A stretch of DNA of 64,000 bases. Origin: Nitrospirota bacterium. GTDB lineage: Bacteria > Nitrospirota > UBA9217. The notes beneath the pieces are model-generated. The model worked only from the letters and a program-made list of their open reading frames with translations, had not been told where the DNA came from and made no database searches. Of the stretch, positions 36,689 to 45,105 are shown piece after piece (within the stretch, counting starts at the first letter, position 1; each line of letters opens with the position of its first letter). The translations under genes and the position numbers were made by a program. The DNA is taken from positions 192,001-256,000 of the forward strand of contig CAVVUN010000006.1 in the NCBI GenBank assembly GCA_963751455.1. Reading direction: 5' to 3'.

Positions 36689-37420
36689 TTACATCGCCGC
36701 TTCGGCAGCAACATGCCCGGCTAATGTCGTAATAAATGCCTTCAGTCCGGTTAATTCGCTCATTTCAGAGTACACGCCGTTTTTTGAAGCAATCCGGGGA
36801 GAAAGAATAATAGTAGCAGCAGAGTATAATTGTTCGGCCATCAATTTCTTACACAGAATGTTATAACGCTCGGCATACGAGGCATTCTGAAACTCCGGGA
36901 AAATGGGAAAGTTCGGAGAGAAATCCTTTACCGCCCTGCGTGAAGCCGGAGCGTCTTCAAGCAGCATTAAATAACCCAGAAACGGTCTCTTACTTTCTCC
37001 GAAAGCCCCTTCACGGTAGGCAGTCCATAGATCAACCGCATTTCCAAGGGCTTCCTCACAACGATTATTACAATTGTTGCCGAAGGAGCCCGCCTGCGAC
37101 TTAAATTCAACCGCAGCAATGAGTTTTCCCTGATTCATCACCAGCAAATCCCAAACCTTGGTAGGCCGGAAAAAGCCAGGCAGCGTAAGGAGGCGTCGTT
37201 TCTGCAGGATGTCCGCATGGCCGAGCCCATTTGCATGCACGATATCGACAACGAGACGGACAAAGCCATGAAGATTGTTGCCTCCGGTAACCGCGCCTCG
37301 TTCACCCTGGTCCATTTTTCCGCTTGTACGCTGCTTTTTTGTAGCCTTTTTTCTGCTGACCCAGAACTTTTTGACAGCAGAACGCGCCTTCGCTTCATAA
37401 TCAACAAGATCAAGCGGCAT
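36689..37420 (-). CDS. PaeR7I/XhoI-family type II restriction endonuclease
   Basis: [32 protein letters not shown]; overlaps the MTase stop codon. Confidence 0.88.
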
Positions 37421-39146
37421 CATCCACTCCCTTTTCGCCATCTGATGCGATAATGCACCGCTCATCTGGCGATAATTTATAAAGATCGGAGGTCAGAGCG
37501 TTGCATGCCCTGACGTCTCGCTTATCCGCAGCAGCTCTCAATTTCGCTCGCATGTCTTCCGGGACATCCTGCCAATGAGGGATGCGAATGCGGCGCAGAT
37601 ACTGTGCCTGGAATCGCAGATACCCGCCTCGCATTTTTGTGGAATAGGTTGAAATAAAGAGCCCGGGGATATCCGATAGCAGTACTGCCTGGAGCGCTTT
37701 TAAATCCCATGTGTCCGATGTAATGTAATAGAGATTGTGATGAGGATAATATTTTCCTTCCTCATACACGATGTTTGCCTCGCCCTTTATGTCAGGGATC
37801 AGGAGCTTCGGCGTGTTCGTAAGCTGAGGGGTGATCCGGTCAATCGTCCGGTACCATCGGTCGCTGTTCCGCTTCGCCACGTTACGGTTGCAGATAATAG
37901 TCTTATGCCGGTTCAAATATGCAGCAAGCTTCGGATATTTTTTCAAATTTACAAGGCCGCCCTCTTCGTCAAAAGGATTAATAACGCCTTTCCCGCGCCA
38001 TTCAACATGGCCCGCCACGATGTCTTTCGTCATCACCAGCGGCAATTTCCGGTCTTTTTCTACATCAAGCTCATCATACGGCCCGACATAAACTTTATCC
38101 GCGCCGGTAGCAACGCCGATGCCGACTTTGCACCCCGCCTCTTCGAGTGTTGGAAGCTCTGCTTCAAGTCGTCTTAGAACAGCAAGCTGATCAAATGATT
38201 CAAGCACCCACGGCTCGCTGCCATGCATGATGCCGCTAACTTCATGCACATCGCCGCTGGGTTTGATTGATTTGGCTCGCATATCATGTGCAAGCTTGTT
38301 TAAGGTGTCTTTATCAACTTGTGGACGATGCGCTATGCGGGTCGCTTCGGACTTTTCATGTGCAATTACCGTAATAGCCGGGTATGCGCTCACTTCAGAA
38401 TGAAAGGCATCGGTATCGACCATATCAATATAGTATTTCAGATGATAGCCGTGCGCAACCATCTTCCGCAGCGGCCCACCGTAACGGTTCTTCATCCACC
38501 GATCAGAGCAGATGAATCCCACAGAACCTTTCGGCTCCAGGAGCTTTAATGATTTTTCTATAAATGGGATGTACAGATCCGCGCGATCGTAAAGAGTATC
38601 AAAGCGATGCCTATATTCGGCAAGCAGGACAGCAGGGATTAATTCCTGGCGCACATATGGAGGATTGCCGACGATGTGAGTAAACTGAAAAGGAAATTCG
38701 GTAAGGAGAAAATCGCTCTGAATAAGCCATGCATCGAGCAGCTTTTCAGTATCGGATTTTGATAGTCCCGTATCCTTGAGCAACGTGTGGAGCTTCCACC
38801 GTGTTTCCAAAAAACTCTTACTATGCAGTTCAATTGAACGAATAGAATCTCTGAGATCTGCAACAGGTTGAGGGTGCGCAGGAGCATGTGTATTGTAAGA
38901 ATCGAGCAGCCGTTCCACAGCCACTAGAAGAAACGCGCCTTCTCCGAATGAAGGTTCCAGCAAGCGTTTCTTGTAAAGAGCGACAGTGGCCGTGTAGCCG
39001 GTTAAATCCAGGATAAACTCGACCACTTCACGGCGTGTGAACACAGCACCGCGCCCCTCTACGCCAGCCGCTGCCAACTGCTCAATAGCGCCTTGAAGCC
39101 GGTCCATACCTGGCAATGCAATTTGTAAAGTGTCAAGTGTCGTCAT
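37410..39146 (-). CDS. N6-adenine DNA methyltransferase (M.PaeR7I/XhoI-like)
   Basis: [24 protein letters not shown]. Confidence 0.9.
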
Positions 39147-39203: not shown

Positions 39204-42200
39204 TTACGCCTCCGGTTTATTACCGCTTTGTTCCTGTTCATAGAAATCCATTTCTCTTTCCCACTGCTTCCTTTGAGCGATTGCTTTTTCTTTTGCACCT
39301 TCTTCGCCCCATCTCTTGACGGAAAAGCGCCTTAATTTTTCTTTACCTGGCATTGGGCTTCCCGAGGCAAACCAAGCATCAGTCGTCCAGACCTTGCCAT
39401 TTCTCTTGGTGACGCTTTTTCCACGTCTGACACCTACTATGCCGGACTTATTCCTGGCAGTAATTCTAATAGCGTTTTCCCTTCTTTTGTAGGGTGTTAT
39501 TAATTTATTGATTTCAGCTAATTGCTCTTTTGCGGCTTCAAAGGCATCTTTTATACCGCCATATATAGAATCGCTAAAAAATTCATTATAGTTCTTGTCT
39601 CGCCGTCTGACTCTGATTTCCCAACCGTGTGTACCCCTCTTAGTAAAGATATCAATCCTTGTGATTCCAATAGTTCTTGGAAAAGTCTTTTTAATAAAAT
39701 CCTTAATCTCAGAATAATCTATAACTTTATTCGGTTCAGAAGAGGAAAATAGTGAACCTGAGATTTTTATCTTCGGTACATAGTCGCCCTTCTTGACTGC
39801 GCTGCCTTTTCCTCTCTTGCTTGCAGTACCAAAGCTTTTCGCATAATGTTGATGCCGTACTCTTCCTTGCGGAATAATTGTTAAGTCTTTGCCCCACCTT
39901 AGCAATGTTTTTAAGCGCCACTTTAAGGTTTCTTCAGTATATCTATCATCCATTATTTTTTCAAATGGCGGCCTTACGGGTTCATCTTGCCTGACAGTCT
40001 CCCAAATTATTTGTAGTGGCTCAGTGGTAAGCGCTTCTTTAAGCAATTTCCGAAATTCGCCTGGAGATACAGTCACTGGTTGATCACCGGTTAGCCAGCC
40101 ACCAAGACGTAAATCAGATATTGCTACACGATCATCGATTTGTGATACTGGCACTCCACCCTGTATTGACTGCCAAGCATTTTCCACCAACGCAACATTC
40201 GGACTCGACGGCAAGAAAAAGTCCAGCCGACTTGAAGCCCTTCTCCTGACATTCAACATGCCCAAATTGCCGAGAGTTTCAATTATAGAGCTTCTCGACT
40301 CGGTCGGTTGTATCAAATTTCCGTCATCGGTTTCTACTAGGAGTTTGGTTTCCGTCAACCATGCCCGAAATACTAATGAGTAGGATTCCCAGGTTTTACT
40401 TGACGCCTCTATGAACGGAAACTGTTGTTGAAGATATTTAGACATAGCCTTTACAGAGAATTTATCACCGTGTGATACGGCGTTAATAATTCGCGATACG
40501 ATTTCATTCTTTAGAAGTTGTCGCCGTATATACTCCCCTAAACGCCCATGATTATAGATATCGCGTACAGATTGAGATACTTCCCATCCATCTTTACTTG
40601 CTATGATCAGATTAAAATTTCTCAATTCCCGAAGTATGTTGAAGGCATATCCCCGCGATAATCCCTGAGTCTTTTCAATATCTTCGACAGAGATGTCTTT
40701 TTTGTTTTTATCTATAAGCGAGTGAAAAACGGCCAGTACGGGGCTAGGAGAGGTTCTGTAGACATTTATCTGGCGAAACTCGGGAAGTTTTTGATAAACT
40801 AGATAATCTTTAAAAACGTCACTATAAGTGTCATAAGTAATTCCGGTAAGCCTGATTAATCTTGAAGCCGTTAGTTTATCAAGAATTTTTAGTAAAAGTG
40901 GGTCTTCATCGAAATGTCTATGAATTTGGTTAAAGTCTGCGGGGAGCAATCTTGCAATTCGAGAAAGATAGTCTCTTTCCATTTCATCAAGTTCTTCAAG
41001 CTCTTCATTAAATAAATCATCAAGCTGCAAACCTGCGGATATCAACTCACTTTGAATAACGCCTTTACTGACTAATCTTGTTAGATGCGCCATTGTTCTT
41101 TTTAACAACCAAGGAAATCCTTGGGCAAAGCTGAGAACATATGATTGAACTTCACGTGTTATTGGTTTAGCTGCTGTCTCGTTAATTCTTCGTATAAGTG
41201 AGATGGCCTCTTCAACTGAAAAGTCAGGCAATTCGAAAGATTTTGAAGATTGATTTATTTTTTCGAGGGAAATTTTAGAATTATCAAAAGTCGTCAGCTG
41301 GTCATTTTTCCTAGCAAAAATGACAAATGTCTTATTTTTGCTACGAGAAAAAATATCAAAAAGGTTTTCGTAAGCTTCAAATATCTCTGGAACAAGGAAC
41401 GTCGATTCAAATTGATCAACGAAAAACAACTTCAATCTATCTCTGTTATTTTCTATTAAATTGTTAATTTGATTTTCAATATCACGAAAATCTTGCGCTA
41501 AGTAGTCCGAATTCGTGAAGCGCTGCACCACGGAAAATATATCAAGAGTTGATTTAATATCACGCGCATCATGCAATTCTGTAATAGCACCTGCTTCCAC
41601 CTTTGCCTTTTCAATAAATGCCAAAACCGAGCTTTTCCCAACACCTGAACGACTTTTAACCTGTAAGATGTTAGGCCCTTGATTCTCATCGATATAGGTT
41701 GATAGTCGTTCAATAAACTTATCTCTTCCTATGAAAACATTCGGGCTTGCTGGCAACTTGTAATCTGCCCAATCAGTACCTAAAGATAAGCCCTTCGGAA
41801 TGCTTCGTTCTTTTTCACGATAAATCTTGCTTGGCTTTTTTGGGCTCAAAATTGGCTCAAGTGGTTGCAGAGGAATCTCCGATGAAGTTAAAGCCTGCAA
41901 AAACTGCACGTCATCAATTTGATTGCAATTGAGATCAAAAACAGAAAAATAGGCCGGTGTAATAGAATTATGCGCGCGTGCAATAAGCACTAAAAAAATG
42001 TCATCATCCGTTTTCAGGATTTTGCTAGTAACAGGTATATAGCCTTGTTGTTGTAACACACTTGCCAACACATCAAAAGATGGACATCTCAATGAGTCTT
42101 CAATCGACCTGAATAGTCCCTTCCCCGTTATGCTGGTGATACCGTACGATTTGACTTTAGAGTAGTAATCATCGGCTTCCGGAGTAAGTGGGGCCGTTGA

Positions 42201-42533
42201 CAAAAAAAGTCCATGTACTTTTTTTTCGTTTAAGCCTAATGGTAATAACTTCCCAACAAAGGCAGAGAATTCCTTTCCTGTAATCGATTTTTCCAAAGCC
42301 TTCGCTTCACCAATAACTTGCTGCTGTGTTGTTACATTTACACCTTCAATATCATACTCAAGACTATTCTTCTTTTTCCTTAATTCAACATTAAAGCCAG
42401 AGGCTTGTAGATATTTTTTCAAAAGGGACTCGAATAGGAGCCCTTTATAGAAGCTTTTGTTTTCTTCGGTTTGTTTGCTATGATAGAAAAGAAACATTTT
42501 TAGGGACCCGTAATTTGTTGTGCAGATGCCCAT
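39204..42533 (-). CDS. Mrr-like PD-(D/E)xK nuclease + STAND-like NTPase + tandem AP2-like domains (start may be 42497)
   Basis: FE..L...YDIEG...GEAK; FIGR, SRSGVGKS, FFVDQFE; two C-terminal AP2-like repeats (FFSDSIYGG..AFEAA; FSVKRWGEEGAKEKA). Confidence 0.7.
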   Translation of the reverse strand: MGICTTNYGSLKMFLFYHSKQTEENKSFYKGLLFESLLKKYLQASGFNVELRKKKNSLEYDIEGVNVTTQQQVIGEAKALEKSITGKEFSAFVGKLLPLGLNEKKVHGLFLSTAPLTPEADDYYSKVKSYGITSITGKGLFRSIEDSLRCPSFDVLASVLQQQGYIPVTSKILKTDDDIFLVLIARAHNSITPAYFSVFDLNCNQIDDVQFLQALTSSEIPLQPLEPILSPKKPSKIYREKERSIPKGLSLGTDWADYKLPASPNVFIGRDKFIERLSTYIDENQGPNILQVKSRSGVGKSSVLAFIEKAKVEAGAITELHDARDIKSTLDIFSVVQRFTNSDYLAQDFRDIENQINNLIENNRDRLKLFFVDQFESTFLVPEIFEAYENLFDIFSRSKNKTFVIFARKNDQLTTFDNSKISLEKINQSSKSFELPDFSVEEAISLIRRINETAAKPITREVQSYVLSFAQGFPWLLKRTMAHLTRLVSKGVIQSELISAGLQLDDLFNEELEELDEMERDYLSRIARLLPADFNQIHRHFDEDPLLLKILDKLTASRLIRLTGITYDTYSDVFKDYLVYQKLPEFRQINVYRTSPSPVLAVFHSLIDKNKKDISVEDIEKTQGLSRGYAFNILRELRNFNLIIASKDGWEVSQSVRDIYNHGRLGEYIRRQLLKNEIVSRIINAVSHGDKFSVKAMSKYLQQQFPFIEASSKTWESYSLVFRAWLTETKLLVETDDGNLIQPTESRSSIIETLGNLGMLNVRRRASSRLDFFLPSSPNVALVENAWQSIQGGVPVSQIDDRVAISDLRLGGWLTGDQPVTVSPGEFRKLLKEALTTEPLQIIWETVRQDEPVRPPFEKIMDDRYTEETLKWRLKTLLRWGKDLTIIPQGRVRHQHYAKSFGTASKRGKGSAVKKGDYVPKIKISGSLFSSSEPNKVIDYSEIKDFIKKTFPRTIGITRIDIFTKRGTHGWEIRVRRRDKNYNEFFSDSIYGGIKDAFEAAKEQLAEINKLITPYKRRENAIRITARNKSGIVGVRRGKSVTKRNGKVWTTDAWFASGSPMPGKEKLRRFSVKRWGEEGAKEKAIAQRKQWEREMDFYEQEQSGNKPEA

Positions 42534-42566: not shown

Positions 42567-43871
42567 TTATTTTTTCCAGGTATCGTAGGCCTTCTTACTC
42601 TTTGATGGAACCGAAACAGGGTCGATTAACCTAACGATTCGCTTAAAGGCATCCCTGCACCTACCGTATGACCCGATCCGCAACCCTACGACCGTTTTCG
42701 TGTCCGGTAAAGCCAGCATTATGGCTACCTCGCTTGGCGTAAAACTTTTAATGATCTGGTCATAATAAGGAACCGCAGCTCGGGATACCCCATATTGGTT
42801 GCCGACAGAACAAGTCACAACAGTTGACACTAGTTCCGATTTGGCAGTATCTGGGATGGCGCCTTGGGAGGTGATCTGAAGAAGTCTTTCTGCAAAAGGT
42901 GGTTCATTATAGAAATTATCAAAAGCTTGGTGTACTTCAAAGAGCCGCTTACATGCTCCCGAAATCAATGCATGCCTTTCGCTATCACTAAGCAGATTTA
43001 AAAGAGCGAGTTTTTCAAAAAAAACCTGAGACGCTTTGTGGCGGTCTTTATCCCCCTTTGCCAAGTAATCTTGGTGTCTATCGATGAGGTCCGATTTTGC
43101 CTTCGGTGTTAAATCAGGCACGAGTTCACTAACAACCGCTAGTGCATTAATTCGTCCTTCTTGGGCTATAGCGGGGTCACAAAATATGCCATGTAGTGTT
43201 CCTACAAGTAATTCCCGTTGTGCTTCGTGGGTTTTCCGTAGCCGCTGAATCCACTCGTCTTTTTGGTCTTTTGTGAATTTTTTACCATTGATCGCCTTTA
43301 TGAAAGCCTGTATGTCAACACCAACAGGGTTTTGCTCTCCCGTTAAGGCGTATTTAGAGCAGCGATTCAGAAAAGAAATTAATTCATGATCATCGATTTT
43401 TCCTACAGCAGGATGAGCAGCTGAGAAATTATTCCGAATATCGCGGCACTGATCCAAGAAGAAGTACCCGTCCTCAGTGATCAGGTTTAGGCTGAGACAG
43501 AGTTTAAGGAGTTCGGCATCCTTTAAATCTTGTAGCGCTCTCTCATCAAAGTCCTTTGCGTCGATAACCTGACCCACTACATTGAGGCCGAAGCGCCTTA
43601 CCTTGTCTCTAAGTTCAAGAATTGTAGCATTCCAGACATAATTAATGGCACTGTCGAAAAGACCAGATGCGACTGCGACACACATACGGGCCAATGCCTC
43701 GCTACGAAGAGCAGGAGGAACTTTAGTTAAGACACGGGGAAGATTCGTCCAAGCACCATCGATTTCTTCATCACTCGCTAGGATATCTCTGGGTACGCCC
43801 AGAGCCGTCGTTAGCGCTATTAAAATTGACTGACTGTTTTTGATGACTGCCGGTAGATTTACTTTAGACAT
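42567..43871 (-). CDS. Hypothetical protein with HEPN-like Rx4-6H motif
   Basis: SAINYVWNA...CRDIRNNFSAAHP; helical C-terminus; RBS before MSKVNL. Confidence 0.6.
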   Translation of the reverse strand: MSKVNLPAVIKNSQSILIALTTALGVPRDILASDEEIDGAWTNLPRVLTKVPPALRSEALARMCVAVASGLFDSAINYVWNATILELRDKVRRFGLNVVGQVIDAKDFDERALQDLKDAELLKLCLSLNLITEDGYFFLDQCRDIRNNFSAAHPAVGKIDDHELISFLNRCSKYALTGEQNPVGVDIQAFIKAINGKKFTKDQKDEWIQRLRKTHEAQRELLVGTLHGIFCDPAIAQEGRINALAVVSELVPDLTPKAKSDLIDRHQDYLAKGDKDRHKASQVFFEKLALLNLLSDSERHALISGACKRLFEVHQAFDNFYNEPPFAERLLQITSQGAIPDTAKSELVSTVVTCSVGNQYGVSRAAVPYYDQIIKSFTPSEVAIMLALPDTKTVVGLRIGSYGRCRDAFKRIVRLIDPVSVPSKSKKAYDTWKK

Positions 43872-43917
43872 ATGATTTCCCTCTTTGGACACTACAACCC
43901 GAAGATGACGATTCAAC

Positions 43918-44826
43918 TCACTCTTCCGCAAAATAATCCGAATCCACTCTACGTATTTCATACTTTGCTGTTGAAGTCGTTCCCAGTCCATAATCGATCA
44001 TCAATTCCGCAAGCGTTCTTCCATCAATCAGGATCACCTTTGGATCAATGCTTTCGACATACTTTACGGCATCATCGGAAAATCTGCCGGTTGTAATGAA
44101 GACGCCCTTCTTTGCTCTTTTGCCGTGAAGCGCACCGACGAATTTCTGAATCTCCGGCCGCCCCACAGTACCTTCCCATCTTTTAGCCTGCAAATAAATT
44201 ACATCCAATCCGAGACGATCTTCCTTGATAATGCCATCGATACCCTCATCGCCGCTTTGACCTATTGATTTACCCGCGTCTGCATGCGAACCACCATAAC
44301 CTAGCGCCACCATCACATCCACAACCAGCCGTTCGAAGAATTGCGGAGAATTTGCCTTGATTCTTTCCATTATCTCGGATGCCAGATCAGCCCGGATATT
44401 CAAATATGCCTTTTGAAGTGTCTCTTCAGGAGTTTCTACAGGAGAGGTATCCGTGTGATTAACAGTGGTGACTTGATCGGTCTTGGACGTATGAAATTCG
44501 ACGAATTCAGGAAATTGATTGAGGATCTTCACGTCGATTCGGTCATGGCCTTTCTTGTGCAGCTCCTTGCCGCGTTGGGTTACGCGGAAATAGCCTCGAC
44601 GGGGGGATTCAAAAACATTTGCCTGGACAAAGTAGCTCTTTGCCCATGCAATCCTATTATCGAACTTTGTCTGCGTCCCACTCGGGAGCATCTCCCGTAA
44701 ATCTTGCTCCGCGATGTTCATGCGTTTCGCGATGATCTCTCTCGCCTCTTTCATGGAATGCTCTTTGCCATCAGCAGCAACATCCAGCAGGGGCTTAAAA
44801 AAAGATTGAAAATCAGGAACCGCCAT
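43918..44826 (-). CDS. mrr: Mrr restriction system protein (type IV)
   Basis: Mrr_N (NRIAWAKSYF) plus Mrr_cat (GDEGIDG, QAKRW, FVGAL). Confidence 0.92.
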   Translation of the reverse strand: MAVPDFQSFFKPLLDVAADGKEHSMKEAREIIAKRMNIAEQDLREMLPSGTQTKFDNRIAWAKSYFVQANVFESPRRGYFRVTQRGKELHKKGHDRIDVKILNQFPEFVEFHTSKTDQVTTVNHTDTSPVETPEETLQKAYLNIRADLASEIMERIKANSPQFFERLVVDVMVALGYGGSHADAGKSIGQSGDEGIDGIIKEDRLGLDVIYLQAKRWEGTVGRPEIQKFVGALHGKRAKKGVFITTGRFSDDAVKYVESIDPKVILIDGRTLAELMIDYGLGTTSTAKYEIRRVDSDYFAEE

Positions 44827-45105
44827 GATTAGGCTCCTCGGTCGCAACATGTGATCGCATAGGATGATGTTTTTCGCTGATTGGCTGAATCATTCGTTCT
44901 GGGACAGTTGATATAAGCAAGGTGTACTTTTCCGGTTGGTTAATATGGAGAGAATATCACAGAAGGTTACAAAAATAAAGGGAGTTCTGAGCAGCTGGTC
45001 TCATAATTTCAGTGTGAACGATTGAGGTTTCGAGAAGATGTCGATACCGCAGATTACAGGAAGAACTTCTCGTCACCTCTTTTCTCCATCTACGCAGTCA
45101 GACAC

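Follow-up and report, generated by a model that had tools for sequence, protein, structure and literature searches.

Avs3 and Avs4 (8DGC and 8DGF) are each encoded by a single gene of patchy distribution and place an N-terminal PD-(D/E)xK nuclease before a central STAND module and a C-terminal recognition region. In the parts of Lee et al. (2026; PMC13581612) available to us, 684 sensor clusters are reported, the named sensor types are TPR-like, WD40, and FGE, and Avs7 serves as the STAND model of an ADP/ATP switch with oligomerization. All identified STAND/Avs triggers given there are phage proteins; four active clusters have no known trigger, and EcAvs22-24 were active with no protein trigger found. 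A different recognition fold, the winged-helix pair, belongs to the recognition domains of FokI, BpuJI, and Nt.BspD6I and to BrxA, SspB, and DndG, and the sections consulted of two further papers describe the module in BREX, Ssp, and Dnd systems (PMC12839542, PMC10853773). The gene described here looks like a combination of the two, with a single-gene, Avs-like layout, a similarly patchy spread, and a restriction-enzyme-like recognition end in which the usual Avs sensor feature is missing. It lies in the open reading frame at 39204-42533, minus strand, of a 64,000-nucleotide window (the whole stretch of DNA analyzed: positions 192,001 to 256,000 of contig CAVVUN010000006.1, assembly GCA_963751455.1, from a Nitrospirota bacterium). 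All window coordinates below refer to features on the minus strand.

The reading frame is real and carries every motif quoted in the preliminary description, which was made from the sequence alone and proposed a nuclease-STAND-AP2 architecture. Translation probably starts at 42497, since 7 of 7 close homologues start at residue 13 of the longest reading frame. This gives a gene at 39204-42497 for a 1097-residue Mrr-STAND-wHTH4-AP2x2 protein; residue numbers are counted from the longest-frame start at 42533. Its AlphaFold2 model had a mean pLDDT of 84.8 and a pTM of 0.67. The Mrr-type PD-(D/E)xK nuclease (residues 13-148; 42090-42497) and the STAND NTPase module with its NBD, HD1, and WHD parts (residues 255-585; 40779-41771) matched Pfam Mrr_cat and nSTAND1 above their cut-offs, which bears out the first two parts of the proposed architecture and provides the N-terminal effector on a STAND module that is typical of Avs. 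Between them lies a small, unassigned alpha/beta domain (residues 149-240; 41814-42089), confident in the model and the least conserved part of the core (0.40); conservation is highest in the WHD (0.78). The nuclease residues E35, D61, E76, and K78 and the STAND motifs G269-R270, G299-K300-S301, D373/E376, R408, and G472/P474 were invariant in 94 of 94 aligned members, and the first Walker A glycine was replaced by S in 93 of the 94. The criteria of Leipe et al. (2004) for STAND membership reportedly comprise an hhGR motif before Walker A, Walker A and B, a sensor arginine, the HD1 GxP, and a WHD; judged by its motifs and the nSTAND1 match, the protein belongs to the STAND NTPases. The fold of the module ties with Orc1/Cdc6. 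Mrr and other type IV enzymes share with the family the Mrr_cat nuclease, the lack of a partner methyltransferase, and winged-helix reading modules. The family differs from them by its added NTPase switch and by the missing Mrr_N: in Pfam searches the STAND nuclease showed Mrr_cat alone, at the N terminus, whereas the true Mrr encoded nearby has both domains.

Residues 586-890, which the preliminary description had guessed to be winged-helix, were modeled as four winged helices, and their best structure matches were DNA-recognition modules. The first pair (residues 586-755; 40269-40778) has the predicted recognition fold of FokI, BpuJI, BrxA, and SspB. The second (residues 770-890; 39864-40226), with a weak Pfam AAA_assoc_C match, is a shortened internal repeat of the first (hhalign probability 94.5%, E 8e-8, 109 columns). 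An ESM Atlas search with residues 585-895 reached a best score of 0.89 with winged-helix clusters and is taken as a lead only. Foldseek with the C-terminal model gave no match at E<=0.001, and there was no TPR-family row among the structure matches listed, which by itself excludes nothing. The models nevertheless point to the multi-winged-helix recognition fold of FokI-type IIS enzymes and, because they assign residues 586-890 to winged helices and residues 955-1102 to two AP2 domains, would leave no room for a TPR-like, WD40, or FGE sensor. Compared with Avs, the family thus has a core of about 880 residues with winged-helix pairs in place of these sensors, a fixed effector, and an optional AP2 or HA tail. 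It is set apart from the named sensor types only; it may be one of the 684 clusters of Lee et al. or correspond to one of EcAvs22-24. Compared with FokI, BrxA, SspB, and DndG, the module is C-terminal, present in two copies, and placed behind a STAND NTPase, with the nuclease first and everything in one chain. Neither a cognate methyltransferase, as found beside FokI-type IIS enzymes, nor any other BREX, Ssp, or Dnd gene accompanies it.

We considered that the protein may function alone, as a nuclease that is switched by ATP, recognizes a mark on invading DNA, and then cleaves this DNA, a proposal that we hold to be slightly on the probable side of even. The recognition helices of the winged-helix pairs would make the contacts with double-stranded DNA, as suggested by the predicted fold and by analogy with FokI, BpuJI, and BrxA. 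Binding would release a closed, ADP-bound state and the STAND modules would oligomerize, as in Avs7 and other STAND proteins. The oligomer would bring the nuclease domains together, and these, with their catalytic residues intact, would cut the DNA. Since the gene is not accompanied by a methyltransferase, the mark would most likely be something that host DNA does not have, either a modification or a structure, as with type IV enzymes. The AP2 pair would be a late addition in one clade that may add affinity or a second nucleic-acid specificity. An anti-phage activity is inferred, and the earlier idea of a DNA-directed NLR-like nuclease gains support. A wider proposal, of a widespread NLR-like family that senses DNA through a restriction-enzyme fold, couples a STAND switch with restriction of the type IV kind in one chain, and has its range tuned by AP2 or HA tails, is put forward only tentatively.

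The alternative that survives best, although we consider it rather unlikely, is an Avs-type receptor: the winged-helix array would bind a phage protein, the STAND modules would oligomerize, and non-specific DNA degradation would kill the cell, with the winged helices and AP2 domains touching DNA only after activation, if at all. The effector-STAND-sensor order agrees with this, as does the high conservation of the WHD; Avs3 and Avs4 were also the sole full-length Foldseek matches, though at a TM-score of about 0.2, and the identified Avs triggers in the consulted part of the Avs survey are all proteins (PMC13581612). What weighs against it is that the C-terminal region is modeled as winged helices with DNA-recognition modules as best matches, that no effector swapping was seen, and that nucleic-acid-type tails were gained twice, separately.

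The family itself is large. A first homologue search gave 117 clusters and a second, from the Escherichia coli member, 179; the best 120 of the 179 were used, and family counts cover 160 distinct proteins. A full-length core was found in 136 of the 160, all 136 with nuclease and Walker A motifs, and, in the length range searched, a foreign N-terminal effector in none of the 160. Members come from Pseudomonadota, Bacillota, Bdellovibrionota, Cyanobacteriota, Actinomycetota, Chloroflexota, and other phyla, and this pair of Pfam domains (Mrr_cat and nSTAND1) recurs in several ESM Atlas clusters, each of 65-97 members. Sixty related genomes gave no orthologue-level match; one had a distant 935-residue relative and three had stand-alone AP2 genes. 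Two loci were found in IMG/VR. One distant member on an IMG/VR contig (L060:241-3564) ends in a subtilase (Peptidase_S8) piece, a single case that may be a chance join. Several copies are split or interrupted (L025:10004-13943 and plasmid hits H1-H4); such copies are common for costly defense genes.

The AP2 pair is present in 8 of the 136 full-length members and a tail of about 295 residues in another 5; the other 123 have no tail. The longer tail consists of four HA domains in the 3 of 3 proteins scanned, and the HA label applies to all 5. The recognition part common to the whole family is therefore the winged-helix array and not the AP2 tail, so that the array, formerly a guess, now stands as the shared module, and the first interpretation holds in its architecture, AP2 fold, conserved fusion, and DNA-directed idea but fails where it took AP2 as the defining sensor. 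A quick IQ-TREE phylogeny of 129 cores, built without an outgroup and leaving out proteins below 850 residues and locus reading frames below 830 residues, placed the AP2 and HA tails on separate nested branches, with one change needed for each.

The tail begins after a basic, disordered, and poorly conserved linker (residues 891-937; 39723-39863) with 11 K/R against 2 D/E and a pLDDT below 50. AP2-like domain 1 (about residues 955-1011; 39501-39671) was modeled as three strands and a helix and lies within the AP2 structure matches; it matches domain 2 weakly by profile (probability 36.5%). AP2 domain 2 (about residues 1030-1102; 39228-39446) has Pfam, profile, and structure matches. The Pfam AP2 score (PF00847) was 16.8 bits against a gathering score of 33.3, and 29.7 in the best tailed homologue scanned. 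Of 71 aligned members of the tail family, 58 matched Pfam AP2, a 71-row tail profile found apicomplexan AP2 structures as its first matches in the PDB, and the structural model agrees by fold, whereas an 11-row profile matched no PDB sequence. Both tail domains thus appear, on profile and model, to have the three-stranded sheet and helix of solved AP2 domains and to be homologous to them, as first proposed. The top structural matches were Toxoplasma mitoribosomal AP2 proteins, which bind rRNA according to the part of the source seen (PMC11652630), and DNA-bound SIP2 scored lower; as the AP2 structures nearest to the tail come from RNA-binding proteins of mitoribosomes, the ligand of the tail need not be DNA.

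The possibility that the fusion is a one-off read-through was rejected: it occurs in 8 clusters and at three further loci (L001, L042, and L043), and codon comparison of the tail gave dN/dS values below 0.25 (about 0.14 between the window and L042, about 0.21 between L001 and L043). Selection on the tail is somewhat relaxed relative to the core yet clearly purifying, and from these values the core-tail fusion is therefore under selection. Together with its retention in one clade with core identities of 47-53% or higher, this could be read as a sign that the AP2 pair triggers the protein or gives it specificity, which would make the AP2 clade a system of its own. We regard this as improbable, since most full-length members are tail-less, the core is equally intact with and without the AP2 tail, and tail-less P0009 is placed, unresolved, within the supported AP2 clade. 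The AP2 pair is a clade-specific extra on a real, conserved STAND-nuclease variant and is not needed for the basic design of the family. Stand-alone bacterial tandem AP2 proteins and ApiAP2 proteins such as SIP2 and the mitoribosomal AP2s differ in that the AP2 pair here is fused to a STAND nuclease. The nearest stand-alone tandem AP2 proteins, of 160 residues, are 40-49% identical to the tail (P0118 and probably P0119, among these matches, are pieces of fused genes). At E<=0.001, the tail profile found 3,110 representatives of a stand-alone bacterial family whose members have two or four AP2 repeats, and none of the best 150 exceeds 525 residues; PHROGs matched 0 of 11 tail proteins. This stand-alone family (P0148-P0296; L038-L040) is unnamed and mostly under the Pfam cut-off where scanned.

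The E. coli member WP_021536679.1 has the same core, 47% identical over residues 13-894, and no AP2 tail. Its gene occurs in 35 of 5,426 complete E. coli genomes; of two copies inspected, one is cargo of a Rac-like prophage and one lies in a genomic island. No tblastn match to it was found among GenBank phages. In both loci inspected, the E. coli homologue has upstream of it, on the far side of a broken IS30, a gene for a 505-residue protein without a Pfam match (L033:8717-10234 and L034:8713-10230). Supplementary file 1 of DefensePredictor lists WP_021536679.1 as a 'Predicted novel defense gene' with a log-odds of 6.17 and, as nearest hit, Rst_TIR-NLR over 37% (PMC13092281); a term search of 10 supplementary files, one in truncated form, found this prediction row only and no domain analysis or test. 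Because the seeds of the Avs survey included Mrr-fused STANDs (PMC13581612, in the part consulted), the family may well fall within its clades; a term search of seven of its files gave 0 matches, as did one of the PMC13069673 supplement. PADLOC 2.0 (2023) and NCBIfam yielded no named system, only weak domain-level matches, in line with the initial suggestion of a new protein; PADLOC 2.0, whose library predates Avs6-24, gave no Avs match for the STAND nuclease or 11 homologues. The searched literature, which included few subscription papers, contained no description of this architecture.

The AT-rich character noted earlier holds, the gene having a GC content of 0.393 against 0.514 for the genome. 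It sits in a same-strand run with a Mrr gene and a 474-residue unknown gene on one side and a type II methyltransferase and XhoI-family nuclease on the other, with AraC and TetR genes on the flanks. An operon partner was rejected, as tblastn of four window neighbors gave no match in the other fetched loci. Among these, the Mrr type IV enzyme with Mrr_N and Mrr_cat (43918-44850) is not a fixed partner, nor is the 474-residue protein between it and the STAND gene (42567-43991), which belongs to no known family, had no useful-score match in Pfam, PADLOC, or NCBIfam, and is a candidate defense gene. The methyltransferase and XhoI-family endonuclease (36689-39146) form a complete restriction-modification pair of their own, and the methyltransferase, tried as a cognate one, was likewise absent from the other fetched loci. 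A promoter and terminator scan gave chance-level signals only, and a single-sequence locus scan found nothing. Elsewhere in the genome, contigs C8, C11, and C15 carry more Mrr copies, some fragmented, 81-94% identical to that of the window, and C15 has a second XhoI-family gene. CTCGAG, the XhoI/PaeR7I site, is mildly rarer than expected genome-wide (1521 observed, 1969 expected).

Neighbors of at least 120 residues within 5 kb were scanned in 45 of 51 loci (L012, L013, L047, and L058 had none usable; L051 and L052 are near-copies of L049). A hand count, with no background control and some near-copies remaining, gave 10 of the 45 loci with defense-type domains, 14 with mobile-element genes, and 4 with a methyltransferase; the methyltransferases are of different families. 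The STAND nuclease behaves as a single mobile gene. In L042, which holds the nearest AP2-tailed relative (77%), the flanking genes are yggS-like and proC instead. One member is the last gene in a run with type III restriction-modification genes and a GmrSD-domain gene (L004:3838-12673), and at L057:2474-11555 an HA-tailed member is found together with a tyrosine integrase, a TIR protein, and an AbiU2 HEPN protein in an array that may be a row of integron-like cassettes. A role outside defense, as a DNA-binding ATPase of selfish or regulatory kind that belongs to mobile elements and serves in addiction, in the control of genes, or in targeting of the Orc1/Cdc6 or TnsC type, is very doubtful given that no transposase, integrase, or antitoxin is a fixed partner, that unrelated defense genes lie nearby in the two loci just named, and that DefensePredictor scored the E. 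coli member as defense.

The FokI/BrxA-type sensor end makes the family a concrete, testable case in which an NLR-like protein may sense nucleic acid. A test would be cheap, as E. coli has an intact member, and a comparison of the natural tail variants (none, AP2, and HA) would reveal how specificity is acquired, with relevance to programmable nucleases and to the roles of bacterial AP2 domains. If DNA sensing proves true, the family would link restriction and NLR immunity.
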